A stretch of 64,000 bases of DNA, taken from NCBI GenBank assembly GCA_964397855.1, contig CAYNKQ010000002.1:3884-67883 (forward strand). Direction: 5' to 3'. This stretch comes from an uncultured Candidatus Saccharibacteria bacterium. Lineage in GTDB: Bacteria > Patescibacteriota > Saccharimonadia > Saccharimonadales > UBA7683. Each line of letters opens with the position of its first letter. Positions within the stretch are counted from its first letter, which is position 1. Positions 4,551 through 24,213 of the stretch are shown here, one piece after another. The position numbers and the translations under genes were made by a program. The notes beneath the pieces were generated by a model. It made no database searches, had not been told where the DNA came from, and was given only the letters and a program-made list of their open reading frames with translations.

Positions 4551-7499
4551 TTAGACTTCATCATCTTTTGAATGATGAATCAGGCCCTGCCTGTCTATGG
4601 CAATCTCACCTGCACCCAAATCACCTTCCTGTATAGCATTGTTAACCGCCGCTGACTGCTCCCCGCTCGTGACTTGCTGATTGTTGCCATCTCTCTGCAC
4701 TACAAGCTCTTCAACCGGCTTCTGGCTGGGATCCGTCTGTAAGTTTACTGGTGGAGTAAAAGACTGTACAGGGCGCGCTTGTGGCTGCTGAAGCGACTGC
4801 GGAATGGGCGTAGCTGTGTGTGTATTCGCCTGACTCAAGCTGCCAAACTCTGGCTTCTGAAGTGCCTGTGGTGAAGAAGTCCCAAGACCCGGGCTAGCGA
4901 CTGGCTTTGTAGCCATCTCTTGTTTCCGCTTAGCGAGCCACTCGTCAAGGAACGAAGAGCTTCCAGGCTTTGGTACAGCCGATGGCTGGGCGGAAGTCGA
5001 TCCCGCTACAGGATTCGTTGCACCAAGCCCTGGCCGAGCACCAGCTCCAAACGCAGGTCGCGGAGCTTCTTGTGTTTTAAGCCTTGCAAATATTTCTTTC
5101 TCAATAACTGCCTTTGGACGGCCATACTTAGCTGCAGAAAGTCGTTTCAGCGCATCCCCTAGTTCTGAGTTAGGACTACCTAGAGGTGGAACTGTTTCCA
5201 TGCTAAACGGTTGTGTCGGAACCCCATTCATGAGCATCTGAACCGCCCAGTTGTAGTTTGGCATCTTAGTAATGTCTTCCGCATCAAATGTTGGAGAAAA
5301 GTATTTAACCAAAAAGTCCGCATCGTTGGCACCAGTACGTGAGCCAACTACGGTCCCCACGTTTCCGAACACCGCGTCACGAATTTCATCAGTAAGCTGG
5401 CCTACAAACTGATTCGCCACGATCAGACTTAACCTATACTTACGGGCTTCAGAGAGGATATCTGAGAACGTTTCAGTTGAGAAGTTTTGAAATTCATCAA
5501 CGTATAACGCAAAATCCCTACGCTCTGATTCGTGAATGTTTGCACGGCCCATTGCAGCAGCGTAGAACTTCATAACAAATATCATGCCCAGAAGCTTAGC
5601 GTTGAGTTCACCCGTCTTTCCTTTACTGAGGTTGACCAGAAGAATTTTGCCCTCATCCATCACCTGACGAATATCAAAACCACTTTTTGTTTGCCCAATA
5701 ATATTGCGCATCATCTGATTCGACAGGAACGCGCCGAATTTACTTACAAACCAACCCTTCACCTCTCCAAATTCATTAGACCGCTCAGATGCTGGCATTT
5801 CTTTAAGCCAGAAGTCGAGCACAGGCTGATCTGTTACATATTTAAGTTTTTGATTTAGGTATGCCTTGTCGTTAAACAACTTTGGGATATCAATAAACGT
5901 TCCCCCATCTGGTCCAGCCATAACAACCAGCGCAGCGTTACGGAATATATTTTCATATCTTGGCCCAATGATTCCTTGTCGTTGTGGATCATACAACCTG
6001 TAAAGCATGTTTATGGCCTCTTGAATAAGGAAATCTTGTTGTTCTTTATATTGAAACTCGAAAAGGTTAAGACCAACGGGATTATCCATATCGCCAGGGG
6101 CAAAGTAGATCACGTCCTCAGTTCTCTCTTTGGGTACCATACTCATAAGCGTTTCGGCGGTGTCACCATGCGGGTCAATAAAGGCAAACCCTTTACCGTC
6201 TAACATATCTTGTAGCGCCAGGTTCTCTAATAGTACCGACTTACCTGTACCGGTTTGTCCGATGATGTACATGTGCCTTCTTCTGTCGCTATCAGTTAGA
6301 CGAATCTCTTTCTTTGTGCCCCTAAACACGTTGTAACCTAACAATAAGCCTTTTTCGGGTACATTATTTGGTCCGTCAACCTGCTTTGAGGCCTGTCGTT
6401 GTAATTGCGACGTCGGTGTATTCTTTTGATCGGGAAAGTGAAAGATCGAAGCAAGTTCAACACTGTTAAGAATACTTTGATTTACCTCTTGGGGGAAAAA
6501 TCGAAAAATAAATGCTGTGACAAAATTTTCTATCACCTTGGCAGGAACAAATTTGAAACCATTTCTGCCAGGAGAATCAAAAAGCGAGAACGAAGCTACA
6601 ATGTTACTAAGTATTGTTTGCGAACGTGCAGCCGTATTAGACGACGCAGCAACACGTATCAGAACTTCGTAACCCGGATAACGAGTTTTCTCTTCAATTG
6701 CATCCAACTCAGCCTGCTCCAATGAAGAGAGTTGCTTTTCTTCCTGCTTAATCTCACCTTCAGGGGGCTTCCATAGTGCACTCCCGACATCCTTCCAGAC
6801 GTGCCCACCAAGACCTTTTTTATAACGATCTTTTTTAAACTTAACGGTGGTTTGCTTTGATTTTTTAACCCAATCAGGGTTTGCAGGACGTAGCAATATC
6901 TGGATACCGGCACCATCGTCTTTGGTAAGCGTTGACATTGAATTGAGTAGTGACTGCATTGCATCACGCTTAGAATCCTGGTATGTGGCGATTGGATTGG
7001 CAAATCCCTTTTTCAGAACAAGCTCTCCACCAATGGTTCCGCTAATCTTGCCGACAGAACTAAAGATGTTATGCTCTTCAACTTCTTCGAGACGAGCAGT
7101 TGGATACGCGCTTGTGATAGCTTGCTCAACCACAGAGACCAACGCAACTGGAACTGCAGTGTAATAATTAATCCTCCCCTTTGCGGCCACAACTTCAAAT
7201 GCAATGTGACGCTGACCATAAAATTTGTTCTTAAAACCTTTCGGAGTAGCAGTACTCGCTAGAATGTTGTACAAAACCTGTGCCTTAGAAATTGTTTCTT
7301 CGGTGATATCTCTTGCATCCCTGCTGCCAGTCTCAATATCATCACTAATAGGTGGAAGATGAATCAAAAGTGGGACCATTTTAAGACCACGTTCATAGTT
7401 TTTGGCTTCACGCAGTACTTTTCGGTAATACGCAAATATAACAAACCCAGCAATTATACCTACGCCCGCCATGACACTTAGAATGATTAATGCTTGCAT
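4551..7499 (-). CDS. VirD4/TraG/TraD-like (type IV secretion coupling-protein family) P-loop ATPase with an N-terminal TM anchor and a ~190-aa Pro/Gln/Ser-rich tail
   Basis: 982 aa. N-terminal TM MQALIILSVMAGVGIIAGFVIFAYY. Walker A IIGQTGTGKS followed by FAFIDPHGD. Walker B-like ALYVDEFQNF. Also ARKYRLSLIVANQ. The last ~190 aa are low complexity. Confidence 0.75.
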   Translation of the reverse strand: MQALIILSVMAGVGIIAGFVIFAYYRKVLREAKNYERGLKMVPLLIHLPPISDDIETGSRDARDITEETISKAQVLYNILASTATPKGFKNKFYGQRHIAFEVVAAKGRINYYTAVPVALVSVVEQAITSAYPTARLEEVEEHNIFSSVGKISGTIGGELVLKKGFANPIATYQDSKRDAMQSLLNSMSTLTKDDGAGIQILLRPANPDWVKKSKQTTVKFKKDRYKKGLGGHVWKDVGSALWKPPEGEIKQEEKQLSSLEQAELDAIEEKTRYPGYEVLIRVAASSNTAARSQTILSNIVASFSLFDSPGRNGFKFVPAKVIENFVTAFIFRFFPQEVNQSILNSVELASIFHFPDQKNTPTSQLQRQASKQVDGPNNVPEKGLLLGYNVFRGTKKEIRLTDSDRRRHMYIIGQTGTGKSVLLENLALQDMLDGKGFAFIDPHGDTAETLMSMVPKERTEDVIYFAPGDMDNPVGLNLFEFQYKEQQDFLIQEAINMLYRLYDPQRQGIIGPRYENIFRNAALVVMAGPDGGTFIDIPKLFNDKAYLNQKLKYVTDQPVLDFWLKEMPASERSNEFGEVKGWFVSKFGAFLSNQMMRNIIGQTKSGFDIRQVMDEGKILLVNLSKGKTGELNAKLLGMIFVMKFYAAAMGRANIHESERRDFALYVDEFQNFSTETFSDILSEARKYRLSLIVANQFVGQLTDEIRDAVFGNVGTVVGSRTGANDADFLVKYFSPTFDAEDITKMPNYNWAVQMLMNGVPTQPFSMETVPPLGSPNSELGDALKRLSAAKYGRPKAVIEKEIFARLKTQEAPRPAFGAGARPGLGATNPVAGSTSAQPSAVPKPGSSSFLDEWLAKRKQEMATKPVASPGLGTSSPQALQKPEFGSLSQANTHTATPIPQSLQQPQARPVQSFTPPVNLQTDPSQKPVEELVVQRDGNNQQVTSGEQSAAVNNAIQEGDLGAGEIAIDRQGLIHHSKDDEV

Positions 7500-7508
7500 G
7501 ATCGTCGC

Positions 7509-7925
7509 CTACTCGGCTAGCTTTATTGTTTTATTATACCGTTTCTGCAAGTAGTCAGCCTGCAGTTTGCTGACTTCTTGCTCCTGTTGATACGGATCAG
7601 TCTTGGTAGAGTTAACAATATGTTTTGCTTTATCTACCCACTCTTTTTCAATAACATCAACGTCGTCAGCCATCATCGGGTCAGCCACCGGAGACACCTG
7701 GCTAACAACTTGGGGCGCAGGGTTGGCGGGCGGGCTGGTTGGCTGAACCGCCAGCACTGGCTGAATAGTCGGTGAACCCGGAGCCGAAGGAGTCTCAAAT
7801 GACCGCTCTTGACTTGTGCTGGGGGCGGTCTCAGGAGATATCGGCATCAAGTTAGCAGCAGTTTGCTGCTCTTGAAAATTCTGACTGCCCTCTTGAGCAA
7901 TTGGCTCAGGTAAAATTGGTTCCAT
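7509..7925 (-). CDS. Hypothetical protein (Pro/Gln/Ser-rich N-half, helical C-half)
   Basis: 138 aa. Ends 10 nt upstream of the ATPase start, on the same strand. C-terminal DVDVIEKEWVDKAKHIVNSTKTDPYQQEQEVSKLQADYLQKRY looks like a folded segment. Confidence 0.55.
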   Translation of the reverse strand: MEPILPEPIAQEGSQNFQEQQTAANLMPISPETAPSTSQERSFETPSAPGSPTIQPVLAVQPTSPPANPAPQVVSQVSPVADPMMADDVDVIEKEWVDKAKHIVNSTKTDPYQQEQEVSKLQADYLQKRYNKTIKLAE

Positions 7926-7967
7926 ATCTGCTTAGAAGTATAGCAAAAAACAGGTGGCTTTGGCAGT

Positions 7968-8351
7968 CTAAAAACGCCGAAGCAAATAAAAATTGAGTAG
8001 CAACTCAAAGACTAAAATTAACACCAGATCAACTACCTGAAGTTGCCTCAGCGTCTGCAACCCCACCAGGAATACTGCGCCAGCTGCTATCGCTACAGAT
8101 GTGTAGAGAATTCTTACACCCGACATCCCGAGCTTGCGACCAATAAATCGCAGCATTGACACCGTAAACGACAGTGTGCACATAAAAATAAACAAAAGAA
8201 ACAACATGACAACTATCGGCCCACCTTGACCTGGGCTTTTTGTCGTAATAATGATCAACAATCCCATGATCGAGCCGACAACTGAAGCCGCCAGTAGCTT
8301 TGTAACAGTTGTAGATTCTGATTCTTTTAGTATTTCTATATCTTTTTCCAT
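7968..8351 (-). CDS. Small integral membrane protein (about 4 TM helices)
   Basis: 127 aa. SD GGAG lies 4-5 nt upstream of the ATG (minus strand ...caatGGAGttATG). Strongly hydrophobic frame. The overlapping 8029..8382 frame was rejected. Confidence 0.6.
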   Translation of the reverse strand: MEKDIEILKESESTTVTKLLAASVVGSIMGLLIIITTKSPGQGGPIVVMLFLLFIFMCTLSFTVSMLRFIGRKLGMSGVRILYTSVAIAAGAVFLVGLQTLRQLQVVDLVLILVFELLLNFYLLRRF

Positions 8352-8374
8352 AACTCCATTGAACCAAATTTCTT

Positions 8375-8442
8375 AAAAACAAAAAAGCTAGAGTAACAAA
8401 TCCGCCAACTTAATTACTTTTGTAGCGCTTGAATACTCTAGC
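8375..8442 (-). terminator. Terminator-like hairpin in the 5' region of the 127-aa membrane protein gene
   Basis: Minus strand: GCUAGAGUA (8442-8434), 38-nt loop, UACUCUAGC (8395-8387), then UUUUUUGUUUUU. It ends ~25 nt before the start codon at 8351. The loop is large for a simple intrinsic terminator. Confidence 0.3.
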
Positions 8443-9289
8443 AGTGACTGACCGCTCTCAATAAAGAGAGCGCTAGCGCCATCAACTGATGGCTATACTG
8501 TGGTGAAAGGTGCTGCTCTTTCGAGCTGATAGAATCATAGCACTGGATCTTCATTAACACAAGCATTTTATTATTGTAATAATAACAATGTACATCTATT
8601 ACAGGTGAAGTAATGTTGTTGTAAATAATGCTATTTGCCTTAATTTAATCTGTACCTAGGCCCTCTTTTAGCGCATAAACCCTTCTTAAAATCTCTGAGC
8701 CAAGCACAGACTGATGTCTAAATTCCTGTAGTTTTTATGACCCGATTAACGATGAGTTGAGGACTGAACACAAAATATCCAGCAATCAGCCTTCACGGCC
8801 AACTCGATAACCAACTAAACATTCCCCAAAAATGTCACGTACACACGCAATCAAATTAATTGCCGACCGACTTAAAAAAATTCAAGAACACGGATCGAAC
8901 ACAATCCCTCCAACTTTACCTTAGAAAATAGAAATAGAATTTGAGTTATATTAACACTACCAATTAATTGATCCCGGGGCGCAGACAACACAGCCATCAA
9001 CGTGCAGCTGAAGCGGCAAACATGCGGCCTAGACTAGACTCCACCATGGACTAAGGCAGTCTTCTCCGACCTACGGCTGAGCACAAAAATAATTAACTGA
9101 ATACAAATTAAAATGCAGGAGAAAAGCACATCGCGTTCCAGCGTTCTAGCAGAATGCCAGTAGGCCAACTTCCTAATAAAGCATTCGACTGTGACTATGT
9201 TGATGTCAATAAATAGTCATCAATTTTGTAGCCTATCAGTATCATGTCATGCTGTGGATAACTTCATTACATTTTGTGCTTATTATATG

Positions 9290-9318
9290 TTGACATAAGC
9301 TTTTAGAGCGCCTATTAT
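9290..9318 (+). promoter_or_regulatory. Sigma-70-type promoter
   Basis: TTGACA (9290-9295), 17 nt spacer, TATTAT (9313-9318). Confidence 0.5.
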
Positions 9319-9324
9319 GATAGT

Positions 9325-9410
9325 GGCACTTGAATAAAAAAAGTGCTCAAAACAAAAAGATAAACCCTTGAAACAACGGCTACTCGCAGGCCGTTGTTTT
9401 CTTTTGTTTT
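9325..9410 (+). ncRNA. Candidate ~85-nt two-hairpin transcript (sRNA or comM leader/attenuator)
   Basis: Lies between the promoter at 9290-9318 and the terminator. 5' hairpin GCACUU/AAGUGC (9326-9347). 3' hairpin GAAACAACGGC - 9 nt loop - GCCGUUGUUUU. The comM SD and ATG follow at 9443-9460. Confidence 0.3.
9370..9410 (+). terminator. Rho-independent terminator (plus-strand specific)
   Basis: AAACAACGGC (9371-9380) and GCCGTTGTTT (9390-9399), 9-nt loop, then TCTTTTGTTTT. The reverse complement has no U-tract. Confidence 0.7.
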
Positions 9411-9457
9411 ACATTTACCAATCTGTTAATACCGTCAAATACAAGGAGGTCTTCTCT

Positions 9458-10963
9458 ATGACAACAGCAAAAGTATACTCTGCCGCACATATAGGTTTCG
9501 ATGGCAGACTAATCGAGATTGAGTGCGACACAAGCAATGGACTACCTGGAATAATTATAGTCGGGCTGGCTAACAAAGCTATCGACGAAGCAAAAGAACG
9601 TATGCGCAGCAGTATCAAGAATAGCCGTCTCAGTACTCCACGAAAGCGTGTAACTTTGAACTTAGCTCCTGCCGACATACCGAAAGATGGATCGTGCTAC
9701 GACCTCCCCATGGCCGTGGCAATATTGGCTGCGAGTCAACAAATACGCCCAGACTTTTTGGCGGACTCATTGTTTGTAGGAGAGTTATCGTTGGACGGAA
9801 GCCTTCGGCCAGTAAAAGGAGCTGTGTCGTACGCAGAAGTTGCAAGAGCAAGCGGCTTCAAGCGGATATTTGTTCCCGCCAAAAACGCGGATCAAGCAGC
9901 GCTTGTGAACGAGATTAGCGTGGTGCCGATCAAAACGCTGCACGAACTTTGCGAATACCTAAACAAGTCGAAGCCCTTTACCCTTCATCCAAAAACAAAC
10001 ATTACAGCAACTCCAGCAAAGGGCTCTGTTGACTTCGGTGACATCTACGGACAGCAGCACGCCAAGCGTGCACTTGAGATTGCTGCAGCCGGACACCACA
10101 ATATACTGCTTTCAGGTTCCCCGGGAGCGGGAAAAACTATGATGGCACGCGCACTTCTGTCGATTATGCCCCTCCCCTCCACTCAGGAGATAATCGCAAT
10201 CACCAAGCTACATAGCCTAGCCGGTGAAGTAGTTAACGATATTGTTACAAACCGTCCCTTTCGTACGCCTCATCATACATCAAGCAGCGTTGCGCTTATT
10301 GGTGGCGGCAAAAGCCCGAAACCAGGTGAGATTAGTCTAGCCAACAAGGGCGTGCTGTTCCTGGACGAGTTTCCAGAGTACACAAGATCCTGCCTAGAGG
10401 CCTTAAGGCAGCCCCTGGAAGACAGGACCGTGACGGTCGCCAGAGCTGAAAGTACCGTCACATTCCCTGCCGACTTTATGTTAGTGGCAACCCAAAACCC
10501 CTGTCCATGTGGCTATTATATGGATCAAGACCATGATTGCAGCTGTACGGCCAACCAGATTAGTCAGTATGGTAAAAAAATATCTGGGCCACTACTTGAC
10601 CGGATCGACTTGGTCGTACCCGTCCAAAAAGTTGCACATAAGCACCTCTTGCCGAGTGTAAACACCGCCACTCAGAGCAAACAGATACTCAGGCAGGTCA
10701 TGTTAGCCAGAAAGATGCAGGCCGAACGCTTCAAGAATACCGAGAAGACAAATGCACACATGAGCAATCGTGATATAACGACCAAAGCTCAGCTAACAGA
10801 AGAGGCTCGGGAGCTTCTGGAAATTGCAGCCACAAAGCTTTCACTGTCAGCTCGTAGTTACATGAAAGTTATTCGAGTGTCCAGGACTATCGCCGATCTT
10901 GAAGCGAGTCAAAAAATCGAAAAAATTCACATGAGCGAAGCCTTGCAATATCGCCCCCGTTGA
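9458..10963 (+). CDS. comM: Mg-chelatase-like AAA+ ATPase ComM/YifB
   Basis: I place the start at ATG 9458 (SD AAGGAGG at 9443-9449) rather than the track start 9368. Lon-protease-like N-domain, Walker A LSGSPGAGKT, VLFLDEFPEY, and a Cys-rich insert NPCPCGYY. Confidence 0.9.
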   Translation: MTTAKVYSAAHIGFDGRLIEIECDTSNGLPGIIIVGLANKAIDEAKERMRSSIKNSRLSTPRKRVTLNLAPADIPKDGSCYDLPMAVAILAASQQIRPDFLADSLFVGELSLDGSLRPVKGAVSYAEVARASGFKRIFVPAKNADQAALVNEISVVPIKTLHELCEYLNKSKPFTLHPKTNITATPAKGSVDFGDIYGQQHAKRALEIAAAGHHNILLSGSPGAGKTMMARALLSIMPLPSTQEIIAITKLHSLAGEVVNDIVTNRPFRTPHHTSSSVALIGGGKSPKPGEISLANKGVLFLDEFPEYTRSCLEALRQPLEDRTVTVARAESTVTFPADFMLVATQNPCPCGYYMDQDHDCSCTANQISQYGKKISGPLLDRIDLVVPVQKVAHKHLLPSVNTATQSKQILRQVMLARKMQAERFKNTEKTNAHMSNRDITTKAQLTEEARELLEIAATKLSLSARSYMKVIRVSRTIADLEASQKIEKIHMSEALQYRPR

Positions 10964-21553: not shown

Positions 21554-22177
21554 TCAAGAGAGCCTCCTAACGACACTCCCAAGCCAAAGTGACTGAGGCA
21601 CGTTAACTAAAGATCTCGTTGCAATACACCGCTGCTTTGATCCAAAATTTACATCAACCAAAACAGGAGCATCTGTAACTTGACCAGGCAGGGTGCCAAC
21701 TAACAAGTTGTGTGAAGCCGCTGGCCTAGGTAGGCCACCAGGCCTCCCCCATAAATCGGGCATGTGCCCCGTTTCACGCCTCATTTGCCTGCTCCGTTGA
21801 TACACTTCAGTAATCTCATCTATCACAGTATCATCTACCTCAGCGGAAGCTAGATAGCATTCCACGCTCACACCCTCCATGAATGGCTGCTGCTGCTCGA
21901 CCACCCATAGCCCGCTTCCAATTGAGAGCATGTCAATCTCGGTACTTATAGCAATACCACCCAAGTGGGTCTCTATCAACTCTAGCTCTTGTCGTAAAAT
22001 ATCCCTAAACCGTCTTGCTTCGCTACGACTAAAAGTATCGTGGGAGACCTTCACTACTCGAGGCTCATCAACATCACGATATGCCTGAAACCCTTTTCCA
22101 GACCCAATTTTTACAAAGCTATCACCTGGGTATTCGGCAGCCTCGTGCGCAGCACTCAAGAAGTGTACTCCTCGCAA
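21554..22177 (-). CDS. Hypothetical protein with protein-kinase-like motif spacing
   Basis: 207 aa. VVKVSH (candidate beta3 Lys), ELELIE, HMPDLWGRPG...NLLV, VLVDVNFG (DFG-like). Overlaps the tgt 3' end by 22 nt. By eye it looks more G+C-rich than its neighbours. Confidence 0.5.
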   Translation of the reverse strand: MRGVHFLSAAHEAAEYPGDSFVKIGSGKGFQAYRDVDEPRVVKVSHDTFSRSEARRFRDILRQELELIETHLGGIAISTEIDMLSIGSGLWVVEQQQPFMEGVSVECYLASAEVDDTVIDEITEVYQRSRQMRRETGHMPDLWGRPGGLPRPAASHNLLVGTLPGQVTDAPVLVDVNFGSKQRCIATRSLVNVPQSLWLGSVVRRLS

Positions 22178-23229
22178 ATCCGCTGGAGATAACGAATATT
22201 ATGTATTGAAGCCAGAGTCCCAGCTAGCGGCTCCCCTACTTTAAACTGGTGTCGCAAGAATCCACGTGAGAATTTGTTCACGCAAGTATAGCAGTCACAT
22301 ATATCATCTATGACGTTCGTACTTAGCTTATGTATCTCAGATTTGAGATTAAGACGTTCATCACCAGATGACCACACGCTACCATGCCGAGCGTTCCTGG
22401 TTGGAATAACACAGTCAAGCATGTCAAAACCGCACTCAATAGCCTTTCTAAGATCTCGCGGATCACCCACCCCAAGTAAGAATCGTGGTCGATTAGAATC
22501 ATCAAATAGCGGGGCAAGAAATTCAAACATTTCATGCATCTCTTCCCTAGTCTCTCCAACCGAAAGCCCGCCAATTGCTATGCCACCAACAGGTAGACCC
22601 TGGACAATCTCTAAGCTTTTTCTTCTAAGTTCTTTGTCTAACCCACCTTGCACAACACCAAAAAGCAGCGGCTTCTCTTCGTCTGTCATATCCTGAGTGA
22701 GTCGATTATACTCAGCGATACTACGTTCTAACCAGCGATGAGTTCTTTCGAATGCCTCTTGAGTTCTACCGCGGGCCGCTTGTTCCAGCGAAACAACATC
22801 GTCAAAAGCGACAATCATATCCGCGCCAAGCTTCATTTGTATTTGAATCGAAATTTCAGGAGAAAGGAATACAATGTCACCAGACCGTGGATCTTTAAAT
22901 GTGACACCCTCTTCAGCGATCTTATTAATGTGGGCCAGCGAGAATACTTGAAAACCACCTGAGTCCGTAAGCATGGGTAAATCTTGACCGGTAAAAGTGT
23001 GGAGACCACCCAACGATGCTACGACACCTTCACCCGGTTGCATATGTAAGTGATACGTATTCGCAAGTACAACCTGTACGCCAGTAGATTTCACCATCTC
23101 GGGTGTCAACGACTTAACCGCACCCCGAGTACCATCGGGCATAAACGTCGGGGTAATAATATTCTTACCGCGGACAGTTAGTTCGCCAGTACGTGAATAC
23201 TCGCCTATCTTCTTTTTCTCTACATACAT
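22156..23229 (-). CDS. tgt: Queuine tRNA-ribosyltransferase (tRNA-guanine transglycosylase)
   Basis: 357 aa. TPTFMPDGTRGAVK, VLANTYHL, MLTDSGGFQVFSL, and the Zn site CDCYTC...H. Confidence 0.93.
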   Translation of the reverse strand: MYVEKKKIGEYSRTGELTVRGKNIITPTFMPDGTRGAVKSLTPEMVKSTGVQVVLANTYHLHMQPGEGVVASLGGLHTFTGQDLPMLTDSGGFQVFSLAHINKIAEEGVTFKDPRSGDIVFLSPEISIQIQMKLGADMIVAFDDVVSLEQAARGRTQEAFERTHRWLERSIAEYNRLTQDMTDEEKPLLFGVVQGGLDKELRRKSLEIVQGLPVGGIAIGGLSVGETREEMHEMFEFLAPLFDDSNRPRFLLGVGDPRDLRKAIECGFDMLDCVIPTRNARHGSVWSSGDERLNLKSEIHKLSTNVIDDICDCYTCVNKFSRGFLRHQFKVGEPLAGTLASIHNIRYLQRICEEYTS

Positions 23230-23237
23230 CTGGGTAG

Positions 23238-23246
23238 ATTATAGCA
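23238..23246 (-). promoter_or_regulatory. Extended -10 promoter (TGcTATAAT) 8 nt upstream of the tgt ATG (leaderless arrangement)
   Basis: The rc of 23229-23246 is TGCTATAATctacccagATG. There is no room for an SD. Confidence 0.45.
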
Positions 23247-23255
23247 GAGGCGGGG

Positions 23256-23313
23256 TTAGTTCTTAGTTCTTAGTTCTTAGTTCTTAGTTCTTAGTTCTTA
23301 GTTCTTAGTTCTG
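23256..23313. repeat. Heptanucleotide microsatellite (TTCTTAG) x7 plus partial units
   Basis: Perfect tandem copies at 23260-23308, flanked by partial units TTAG (23256-23259) and TTCTG (23309-23313). Lies 27-85 nt upstream of the tgt start. The unit proximal to tgt occupies the -35 position of the tgt promoter. Confidence 0.95.
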
Positions 23314-23321
23314 TTAATCAT

Positions 23322-23513
23322 AACCCTCGCCTAGCGAGACAACTAATCCACCCATTCAACCAAACCCGAACCCTGGAAGGCTCTGTGTGACGAGTCAAGG
23401 AGTGACTTGCCCGAATCAGTAACTAAAGAATATATGAGGGATGCTTGCATCGTCACGACGCGTCACACAGGGCCTGGAGGGGTATCGAGGCTTGGGTGTT
23501 ATGGGTGAGGGTT
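23322..23513. other. Long imperfect inverted repeat / candidate structured RNA
   Basis: CTGTGTGACG (23383-23392) vs CGTCACACAG (23461-23470). CACCCAT (23349-23355) vs ATGGGTG (23501-23507). AACCCTC (23322-23328) vs GAGGGTT (23507-23513). Internal hairpins CTCGC-cta-GCGAG and AGTCA-aggag-TGACT. No ORF of 60 aa or more on either strand. Confidence 0.25.
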
Positions 23514-23897
23514 TTGTATTCCTTTTGTGCAAAAGGAATAAGAGGAAAGAGGTGAGAAGAAGCTGGCTGGAAGAGATGGAGGGTTGGAGAAGCTTGGGGT
23601 GCTAAGACAGGAAGTTGATGTGTTGATGACTGGATCTTTCCACTGCGGTCAGGATGACACTGCTTTGCTAAAGCTGTGGAGTAGGGGCTGATTGTTTAGA
23701 CTGACTTCGCCTCAGCAAACAACGAGATAGGAAAAGTGGCCACTCCATTGTCACACTCTTAACAGATGTAAAGATTGTACTTATCCTCTACTATCGCTAA
23801 CTTATCCACAAATGATTTGCAATAAAAATGCAGCCTGTGATATGCTTGATCACTGTCGGGCAAGAATTAACGTAATATAGGTCGAAACTTGTCCATA

Positions 23898-23926
23898 TTG
23901 ACAAATCAATTAGCTTATGCTAATAT
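23898..23926 (+). promoter_or_regulatory. Near-consensus sigma-70 promoter with extended -10
   Basis: TTGACA (23898-23903), 17 nt spacer ending in TGc, TAATAT (23921-23926). Confidence 0.6.
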
Positions 23927-23934
23927 TGGAGTAC

Positions 23935-24057
23935 ATGAGTAACAAACCCATGAAACACCAGAAGTCGCAGCTCGAAAAATTCAAACTATTTTTTGAAGAA
24001 ATCCCAGCTGCAAACCCTATGGGTAAAAGACTTCGCCGCAACAAAGCTGTAGTGTAA
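23935..24057 (+). CDS. Candidate 40-aa small protein (below the ORF-track threshold)
   Basis: MSNKPMKHQKSQLEKFKLFFEEIPAANPMGKRLRRNKAVV. GGAG lies 5 nt upstream of the ATG. It has its own promoter (23898-23926) and terminator (24087-24121). No family recognised. Confidence 0.45.
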   Translation: MSNKPMKHQKSQLEKFKLFFEEIPAANPMGKRLRRNKAVV

Positions 24058-24086
24058 ACTACACCCTAAGCGTAAAAGTAGAACAT

Positions 24087-24121
24087 AAAAAAAGCTGCAT
24101 TCATTTGCGGCTTTTTATTTT
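24087..24121 (+). terminator. Rho-independent terminator after the 40-aa ORF
   Basis: AGCTGCA (24093-24099) and TGCGGCT (24106-24112) with one G-U pair, a 6-nt loop, then TTTTTATTTTT. Confidence 0.65.
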
Positions 24122-24213
24122 TACCAAATAACAGATGGAGGTTGCTCTATCCCCAGAACCACATATGTTTATCCACTAGCATTTTACTCAGAGGTATGAC
24201 AATATATAGTCAT

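Follow-up and report, generated by a model that had tools for sequence, protein, structure and literature searches.

A lineage-specific non-coding insertion with a long foldback hairpin upstream of tgt in a Saccharibacteria-like genome

Introduction

Bacterial MITEs and foldback repeats include the ERIC/IRU elements, which are imperfect palindromes of 127 bp, as well as the Correia/NEMIS, RUP and Nezha elements. A further class of hairpin-forming extragenic sequences is that of the REPINs, which are doublets of REP sequences that fold into hairpins and are mobilised by the Y1 transposases known as RAYT or RayT (Bertels & Rainey; PMC3337134, PMC3116915). REPINs are present in multiple copies, contain two short REP palindromes and typically flank a RAYT gene (PMC3337134, PMC3116915).

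The locus described here lies in a 64-kb stretch of DNA, hereafter the window. The first-pass annotation had described in it about 580 nt of structured-looking non-coding sequence between tgt and a small ORF, and had offered as possible explanations a large cis-regulatory leader, an independent ncRNA, or a relic of mobile or degraded DNA. We hold with moderate confidence that positions 23273-23757 are a young, lineage-specific non-coding insertion, which most probably represents mobile DNA of the hairpin/Y1-transposase type in the form of a non-autonomous fragment now in decay. Its closest comparisons would be the REPIN, PATE and MITE-like foldback elements, which HUH/Y1 (IS200/RayT-type) transposases mobilise in the form of single-stranded hairpins.

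Results

Neighbouring genes and their promoters

The window has a G+C content of 44.5% and its genes are densely packed. On one side of the spacer, at 22156-23229 on the minus strand, lies tgt, which encodes a queuine tRNA-ribosyltransferase (Pfam TGT, E = 2.7e-111). The closest homologs of this protein, at 78-93% identity, are metagenomic, and those that carry a name belong to Patescibacteria or Candidatus Saccharibacteria, so that the window is taken to represent a Saccharibacteria-like CPR genome; CPR episymbionts have genomes of roughly 1 Mb. On the same ground we dropped the cyanobacterial STRR repeats and Nezha MITEs, which had been suggested by the heptamer repeats described below.

On the other side of the spacer, a small ORF of 40 aa (46 aa from the start at 23917) is found at 23935-24057 on the plus strand; gene calls in relatives include it with a length of 40 aa, and it has no Pfam match. 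The promoter/terminator scan places a terminator at 24089-24116, and weak Rfam matches to OrzO-P and STnc at 24032-24170 correspond to this same terminator. Beyond the small ORF and its terminator, on the far side from tgt, lies an NrdR-like zinc-ribbon gene. In the tgt neighbourhoods of relatives, which were retrieved by means of their exact TGT proteins, the genes upstream of tgt keep their order (glycosyltransferase, NrdR-like gene and small ORF, followed by tgt), and the gene content downstream of tgt differs from one relative to another.

Both genes that bound the spacer have putative promoter sequences very close to their start codons. For tgt, an extended -10 box, TGCTATAAT, occupies 23246-23238 on the minus strand and is separated by 8 nt from the ATG at 23229. 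The same sequence is present in the related loci L002 and L014 and an equally spaced TATACT in other relatives; counting both forms, the window and eight relatives all have a TATAAT or TATACT hexamer at a distance of 6-10 nt upstream of the tgt ATG. For the small ORF, the promoter scan identified TTGACA at 23898-23903 and TAATAT at 23921-23926 on the plus strand, in the arrangement TTGACA-17-TAATAT with a TG, and this promoter too ends 8 nt before the ATG. On the strength of these consensus matches and of their conservation, tgt and the small ORF appear to be leaderless or nearly so. Given that the -10 boxes abut both ATGs, the insertion described below lies behind both divergent promoters and outside any 5' UTR.

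The insertion and its boundaries

Homology of L002/L024 to the window ends at 23758 and restarts at 23272, and between these flanks the window has 485 nt versus 185 nt in L002, the two sequences being mutually unrelated. Seven relatives, with TGT identities of 84-93%, have 177-213 nt between the starts of the small ORF and of tgt, versus 704 nt in the window; in L024 (= L002), with a TGT identity of 92%, this spacer is 405 nt long. None of the orthologous loci examined contains the stretch from 23273 to 23757, and seven relatives have nothing there. The empty site is best seen in L014, in which the same flanks (ATCTGTTAA ... TGCTATAAT) are separated by only about 25 nt. Overall, the number of extra nucleotides at this site upstream of the tgt promoter varies from 25 to 485 (L014, L018, L002 and the window). 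From these comparisons, 23273-23757 is a lineage-specific insertion of about 485 nt, in a spot that has been repeatedly hit or remodelled. Its G+C content is 47-53%, versus 34-39% in the adjoining conserved intergenic DNA. The segment is not conserved at its own position in relatives, and its one homolog, of about 137 nt, is located elsewhere (see below).

The sequence that had been annotated as a single unit, from 23321 to 23897, is instead composite, with its far end falling in a conserved divergent promoter/operator region at 23800-23934, which has 80-87% identity to all relatives and long invariant runs. This region is outside the insertion and, as judged by sequence comparison, is of separate origin.

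The left junction of the insertion, at 23758-23771, was defined by inverted-repeat search and by alignment with relatives. Here the sequence ACATCTGTTAAG (minus strand, 23769-23758) is common to the window, L002, L014 and L018, and TTAACAGATGTAA (23759-23771) is an 11/13 inverted repeat, 8 bp of which are perfect, of TTAGTTCTGTTAA (23305-23317) at the opposite edge of the insertion. Read in the orientation of tgt, the ends of the insertion are GAGTGTGACAATGG... and ...CGAGGGTTATGA, which are not inverted copies of each other. Neither terminal inverted repeats nor a convincing target-site duplication were found at these ends, a TTAA present at both edges being the only possible duplication. The insert of the window and the unrelated insert of L002 both begin directly after CTGTTAAG. 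Between the insertion and the core promoter of tgt there is a perfect tandem array of heptamers, (TTAGTTC) x 8.1, at 23256-23312 (TRF score 114, 100% matches); at the same position L002 has (GATCTAA) x 2 and L014 has no array.

Assembly support

Run SRR16797988 provides two independent Logan contigs that match the window. One of them, L019, corresponds to 27112-23627 with 100% identity, and the other, L001, to 23285-19156 with one mismatch (99.98%). Together they confirm the heptamer array and, at the outer end of the insertion, 131 nt (23627-23757), and leave 23286-23626, which includes the hairpin and the purine-rich tract, without independent support. The break at 23285 is accounted for by the perfect 57-nt heptamer array, which exceeds the k-mer length (assumed to be about 31). 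The break at 23627 has no explanation and does not coincide with inverted repeats.

Hairpin, palindrome and purine-rich tract

The long imperfect inverted repeat that the first-pass annotation had placed at 23322-23513 was recovered by repeat search and folding (z -5.9 to -7.0, for RNA of both strands and for DNA). This foldback hairpin consists of a left arm (about 23322-23396), an apex (23397-23456) and a right arm (23457-23513), and the pairings previously listed for it are all present in the sequence: a perfect 10-bp core, formed by CTGTGTGACG (23383-23392) and CGTCACACAG (23461-23470), an outer pair, CACCCAT (23349-23355) and ATGGGTG (23501-23507), and an outermost pair, AACCCTC (23322-23328) and GAGGGTT (23507-23513). 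The duplicated CGTCAC was likewise found, at 23451-23456 (shifted by one base from the 23450-23455 given earlier) and at 23461-23466; in the inverted-repeat search, GTGACG (23387-23392) can pair with either copy, so that the two are alternative partners. The left arm contains in addition a small hairpin, CTCGC-cta-GCGAG, at 23325-23339, and a second small hairpin, AGTGGCCACT, is located at 23735-23744.

When folded as RNA, the hairpin reaches an MFE of -91.8 kcal/mol on the plus strand (z -5.95) and of -90.2 kcal/mol on the minus strand (z -7.00), and as single-stranded DNA it reaches -51.1 kcal/mol (z -6.87); in each of the three cases none of 200 shuffles was as low (0/200). Whichever strand is considered, the 190-nt helix has 2 G-U pairs in about 61-66 pairs. 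Near-equal folding of both strands together with few G-U pairs is unusual for selection acting on one RNA strand, and these two properties suggest an inverted repeat at the DNA level, that is, a DNA palindrome rather than an RNA helix shaped by selection.

The palindrome that follows the hairpin had been described as near-perfect, with arms of 9 bp. Its presence was confirmed, and it proved to be perfect and of 11 bp, TATTCCTTTTG tg CAAAAGGAATA, with a 2-nt spacer, at 23517-23540 (inverted-repeat search); the inner 9 bp, TTCCTTTTG-tg-CAAAAGGAA, occupy 23519-23538, one base off the 23518-23537 given earlier. There is no T-run after it on either strand. A purine-rich tract, previously noted at about 23520-23620, has a purine content of 72% over that interval and a maximum of 76% at 23529-23629 on the plus strand, where it is G-rich and C-poor. 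It is the most extreme such stretch in the 64 kb, for which the mean purine fraction over 101-nt stretches is 0.486 (sd 0.058), and its structure is not significant. Apart from the 11-bp palindrome, the remaining spacer, 23514-23800, has no unusual structure (z +0.71 / -0.71); the structured part is therefore about 220 nt, versus the 580 nt first described. Aside from the hairpin arms, no significant internal repeats were found in the insert, the purine-rich tract included. The statement that the segment holds no ORF of 60 aa or more was correct, as the largest start-to-stop ORF is of 54 aa; the longest stop-free stretch is of 80 aa.

Searches for families, protein relics and further copies

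The segment had been left without a family, and so it stays after Rfam, Pfam, six-frame, BLAST and pattern searches. Rfam gave no match within 23230-23916, either at the gathering threshold over the whole window or at E<=10 on 23150-24200; among the named families, 6S, SRP, tmRNA, preQ1, group II intron and HEARO had no covariance-model match in 23230-23916. The homolog region of L024 gave nothing in Rfam either. Moreover, the promoter/terminator scan found no promoter/terminator pair bracketing the hairpin.

As for proteins, no Pfam match was obtained at E<=1 for the long open frames of the segment, and a chimeric six-frame query made of nine long stop-free translations had no match at E<=1e-3 among 5.8 billion proteins, which speaks against a degraded gene as well as against widespread copies that would have been translated by gene callers. 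With all ORF fragments of the related loci as queries, tblastn gave no match outside the block described below and the conserved promoter region. A degraded protein gene was thus rejected, as Pfam, six-frame and tblastn searches gave no protein relic. A conserved 54-aa peptide starting from a homologous ATG in the window and L024 was also rejected, since the two ORFs are mutually frame-shifted.

No second copy was found in the 64-kb window or in the related loci that were fetched, and blastn gave no match in phage and plasmid collections. Exact-pattern scans of 185,579 species genomes, of the JGI metagenomes and of IMG/VR, in which 19-24 specified bases must match exactly and whose collections exclude the source genome, returned only chance matches without flanking similarity. 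The pattern of the hairpin arms had one chance match in the species genomes, in a Castellaniella MAG with dissimilar flanks, and two in the viral collection, both unrelated hairpins; the 20-nt core of the palindrome and the conserved-block pattern had no match in the viral collection. In the metagenomes, the 22-nt left-arm pattern gave 0 matches and the pattern of the block shared by the window and L024 gave four chance matches, GC-rich and without similarity beyond the pattern. One of these four reads Cas1-like by eye.

A homolog of the apex and right arm beside a Y1 transposase gene

The sole part of the insertion for which a homolog was found elsewhere is a block of about 137 nt that comprises the apex and the right arm of the hairpin (23388-23525, plus strand). 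Its homolog, with about 68-70% identity, is located at L024 7897-8035 (= L002 7674-7812), which is a different locus of a related genome. The blastn score of the match is 36.5 bits, versus a mean of 25.7 (sd 2.1, maximum 33.7) for dinucleotide shuffles, none of which (0/200) reaches it, and the Smith-Waterman score is 42, versus a null of 20 +/- 2.1; MAFFT and nhmmer carry the match out to 23388. In L024 the block sits in an islet of 3.2 kb (7752-10929), with thrS on one side and a DNA_binding_1 (methyltransferase-type) gene on the other. In L003, as in the window (19290/19296), these two genes adjoin, so that the 3.2-kb stretch of L024 is a lineage-specific islet in its turn.

The islet codes for two proteins of 269 and 179 aa without family and for a 211-aa Y1_Tnp protein (Pfam 2.7e-10, above cutoff), whose best NCBIfam match is the REP-associated tyrosine transposase (46.5 bits, below the cutoff of 80). 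The transposase gene is enclosed by 28-nt inverted repeats (9323-9350 and 10010-10037) that are unrelated to the hairpin, and the block is about 1.3 kb away from the gene. Transposases of this type are common in Saccharibacteria, with 2902 proteins at E<=1e-15, some of which are named RayT or transposase. No Y1 transposase gene is present within the 64-kb window, and no viral relatives of the L024 transposase or of the 269-aa ORF were found.

The L024 copy has neither the left arm nor the long hairpin (z +0.39). A three-way alignment gave 13 derived states that the right arm of the window and the reverse complement of the left arm share against L024, 11 that the right arm and L024 share against the left arm, and only 2 that the left arm and L024 share against the right arm. 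The simplest reading of these counts would be that the left arm originated from the older right arm by a later inverted duplication and has diverged since. When the apical stem is predicted from the window sequence only, 4/4 of its doubly changed pairs stay paired in L024 (for example, GUGAC/GUCAC versus AUUAC/GUAAU), but six singly changed pairs are broken and the MFE structure of L024 itself is different. This covariation between two sequences is no more than a hint of a functional hairpin, and a single-stranded-DNA hairpin that a transposase recognises would be expected to show it just as well.

A further motif, GTCATCCT-N13-AGATC, is found within the insertion at 23633-23658 on the minus strand. 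In the form GTCATCCT-N12/13-RGATC it also occurs in lineage-specific intergenic inserts at L024 7796 and L005 3059, the insert of L005-L007 that carries it being 85 nt long and unrelated. These are three independent occurrences of GTCATCCT..RGATC versus about 0.26 expected by our own estimate for the approximately 340 kb scanned.

Comparison with described hairpin elements

The insertion resembles REPINs in that it forms a long imperfect hairpin outside genes, with equal folding of the two strands, as would be expected of a single-stranded-DNA substrate. In addition, the islet of its sole homolog has a RayT-like Y1 transposase gene flanked by inverted repeats, and RayT-like genes are common in the clade. 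The two inverted units that in REPINs form the long hairpin are present here, but they are not short REP palindromes of about 20-40 nt, as the arms are of about 50-70 nt and are themselves non-palindromic, with a small hairpin (23325-23339) in the left arm only. A cognate RAYT flanked by the same repeats is also lacking, the window being devoid of RAYT and the 28-nt repeats of L024 being unrelated. Dispersed copies were found neither in the 64 kb nor by the exact-pattern scans, whose collections do not contain the source genome.

With MITEs and foldback repeats the insertion shares a length in the range of 100-500 nt, an intergenic position, the lack of an ORF, a long imperfect palindrome and the occurrence in one lineage. 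Relatives offer an empty site (about 25 nt in L014, and seven relatives without insert), as expected for such elements, whereas terminal inverted repeats with a target-site duplication are missing and no TIRs match those of a known IS. An end fragment of an IS200/IS605 element, or a palindrome-associated transposable element (PATE), would equally have no TIRs or TSD; the small hairpins at 23325-23339 and 23735-23744, the start right after a short conserved TTAAG as in the L002 insert and the association with a Y1 transposase all recall such elements, but the end hairpins are dissimilar and no cognate IS is known. Overall, the insertion lacks defining features of REPINs (short REP units, a RAYT gene between copies of its own repeat) and of MITEs (terminal inverted repeats, target-site duplication), and it is here likened to such elements in its way of working and not filed as a member of either.

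Discussion

Of the explanations first proposed for the segment, the relic of mobile or degraded DNA has fared best, and only in its first half: a lineage-specific insertion whose homolog lies by a Y1 transposase gene speaks for mobile DNA, and no protein relic came to light that would speak for a degraded gene. The link to a mobile element, which is the most likely one on the sequences compared, rests on a single homolog. From the comparisons given above we infer mobility, the connection with a transposase and the absence of a function. The insertion may have landed in an indel-prone spot directly upstream of the tgt core promoter, and its 190-nt hairpin may have originated by inverted duplication of the older right-arm sequence. 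Being placed behind both putatively leaderless promoters, it would be tolerated there, probably without a dedicated function, and might at most alter the upstream context of the tgt promoter.

An alternative that we consider unlikely is that nothing moved into the site, and that replication slippage and template switching, in an indel-prone spacer, built the insert, the heptamer array and the foldback in place by one duplication or inverted duplication after another. This would agree with the variability of the same site in every clade, with 25 to 485 extra nucleotides, with the perfect heptamer array that abuts the insert, with the resemblance of the left arm to an inverted duplicate of the right arm and with the failure to find other copies. 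It is at odds, however, with the significant homolog that the 137-nt block has at another locus, which implies that this part at least was moved or transferred. Furthermore, beyond the hairpin arms the internal repeats of the insert are not significant, and its G+C content is like that of coding or foreign DNA, unlike that of the local intergenic DNA.

It is more doubtful still that the segment holds an independent small RNA gene, or a functional hairpin carried on horizontally moving DNA, with the apical stem-loop at about 23400-23458 as its core. An element-encoded regulatory or antisense RNA and a transposase-recognised hairpin are examples of what such a core could be, and the fold is indeed very stable. 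The block has been kept at about 68-70% identity in two genomes and in different contexts, and the 4/4 doubly changed pairs of the apical stem remain paired. These pairs, however, come from two sequences only, six singly changed pairs of the same stem are broken, the MFE structure of L024 differs and the long hairpin is absent from it. In addition, the two strands fold to a similar extent and G-U pairs are almost lacking, and exact-pattern scans of large collections gave no homologs. For the independent ncRNA of the first-pass annotation, no positive evidence emerged, as there is no Rfam match and no bracketing promoter/terminator pair, and the covariation is weak and limited to two sequences.

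A mis-joining of 23286-23626 into the metagenome-assembled contig is very improbable: the Logan contigs do stop at 23627 and 23285, bracketing the hairpin and the purine-rich tract, but one of them confirms 23627-23757 of the insertion, the break at 23285 is accounted for by the 57-nt heptamer array (for a k-mer of about 31, as assumed), the syntenic flanks on both sides would require two coordinated mis-joins, and a related genome contains a genuine homolog of the block. Hardly more credible is an invertible promoter segment, to which the 11/13 inverted repeat (8 bp perfect) at the insertion edges, 23305-23317 / 23759-23771, and the break of one Logan contig inside the insert might point, given that the segment is not conserved at orthologous loci, that no recombinase is found among the immediately neighbouring genes scanned and that the break at 23627 lies off the inverted repeats. 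The same low probability applies to a cis-regulatory leader or riboswitch for tgt or the small ORF. The position beside tgt, the stable structure and the alternative pairings of GTGACG with two partners do recall a leader, including the preQ1 riboswitches of the queuosine pathway. The segment, by contrast, lies upstream of the promoter, is absent at orthologous loci and gave nothing in Rfam at E<=10, and with -10 boxes that abut both ATGs it would not be transcribed as a leader from those promoters. For these reasons the large cis-regulatory leader finds no support.

To return to the reading that we prefer, namely a decaying fragment of mobile DNA, the locus is first of all a cautionary case, in which a very stable 190-nt hairpin next to a tRNA-modification gene mimics a riboregulator and the orthologous loci reveal a recent insertion placed behind putatively leaderless promoters. 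Strain typing or the study of promoter evolution might also profit from the heptamer array and from the hypervariability of the site upstream of the tgt promoter. More speculatively, the 137-nt block and the foldback could be the first sighting, in Saccharibacteria and the CPR, of a REPIN-like family of non-autonomous hairpins served by RayT-like Y1 transposases or, alternatively, the apical stem-loop could represent a small RNA borne by the element; we regard this as doubtful, and either would be notable in such small and tightly packed genomes. If the link to mobile DNA is true, the 137-nt block and the RayT-like genes would provide a handle on REPIN-like populations in Saccharibacteria, and episymbiotic CPR bacteria would still carry and exchange selfish DNA of the hairpin type.

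Sequence variation around tgt

Among close relatives, the surroundings of tgt (22156-23229, minus strand; queuine tRNA-ribosyltransferase) vary on both sides of the gene. Upstream of the tgt promoter, the L024 locus of a related genome carries an unrelated insert of ~185 nt (L024 3495-3679, corresponding to 3272-3456 of L002, the same locus), whose site and flanks (ACATCTGTTAAG ... CCnCCTCTGCTATAAT) are exactly those of the window insertion (23273-23757), while its sequence is different. Downstream of tgt, the window contains an ORF of 201-207 aa with no assigned family (21554-22177), whereas L024 has ~580 nt without a called gene (4795-5374) followed by a GNAT acetyltransferase gene, so that the gene content of the tgt neighbourhood differs between close relatives.

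The extended -10 box of tgt is adjoined on its upstream side by a perfect tandem array of the heptamer TTAGTTC, in 8.1 copies (23256-23312). At the equivalent position L002/L024 have (GATCTAA) x 2; upstream of tgt in the related locus L014 the array is absent from the equivalent place. The array could be a slipped-strand repeat of the contingency type with an effect on the tgt -35/UP region. It also interrupts the Logan assembly. A contig of an independent assembly of run SRR16797988 (Logan contig L019) ends within the insertion, at 23627, beside a short tandem GTTGATGT/GTTGATGA; this stop could be due to population heterogeneity, a drop in coverage or a repeat.

Other lineage-specific intergenic sequences

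The 3.2-kb islet of L024 (7752-10929), located between thrS and a DNA_binding_1 (methyltransferase-type) gene, contains ORF269, a RayT-like Y1 transposase gene and ORF179. The transposase gene has 28-nt inverted repeats on both sides (L024 9323-9350 and 10010-10037), and immediately after it a CCTTCTAAAA-like unit occurs three times in tandem. A gap of 100 N interrupts the scaffold at 8360-8459, and the sequence flanking this gap is duplicated. The motif GTGT(T)GTCATCCT-N12/13-RGATC, which may be a small dispersed repeat, was found in related genomes in three intergenic inserts, each of them lineage-specific and unrelated to the others (window 23633-23658, minus strand; L024 7796-7822 and L005 3059-3084, both plus strand). 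A second ORF-poor region of the window, of ~1 kb (8383-9367), is devoid of ORFs of at least 45 aa, gave no Rfam match at E<=1 and showed no similarity to the tgt-upstream insert.

Conserved putative promoters and the small ORF

A -10-like hexamer is found 6-10 nt ahead of the ATG of both tgt and the divergent 40-aa small ORF (23229-23246 and 23898-23937, respectively), and both genes appear to be leaderless. Upstream of tgt, this arrangement of hexamer and ATG is kept in all the relatives examined (L003, L005, L009, L012, L014, L017, L018 and L024).

The small ORF, which begins MSNKPMKHQKSQLEKFKLFFEE (within 23800-24000), is without a Pfam family. In the same interval, a palindrome, TTGTCcatattGACAA, lies over its -35 box, and nested CACAG..TGCA..TGCA..TGTGG repeats occupy ~23815-23850. 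Across the small ORF and its promoter, ~130 nt of DNA do not vary among six loci of relatives whose TGT identity is 86-93%, a closer conservation than an ordinary gene for a small protein would be expected to show.
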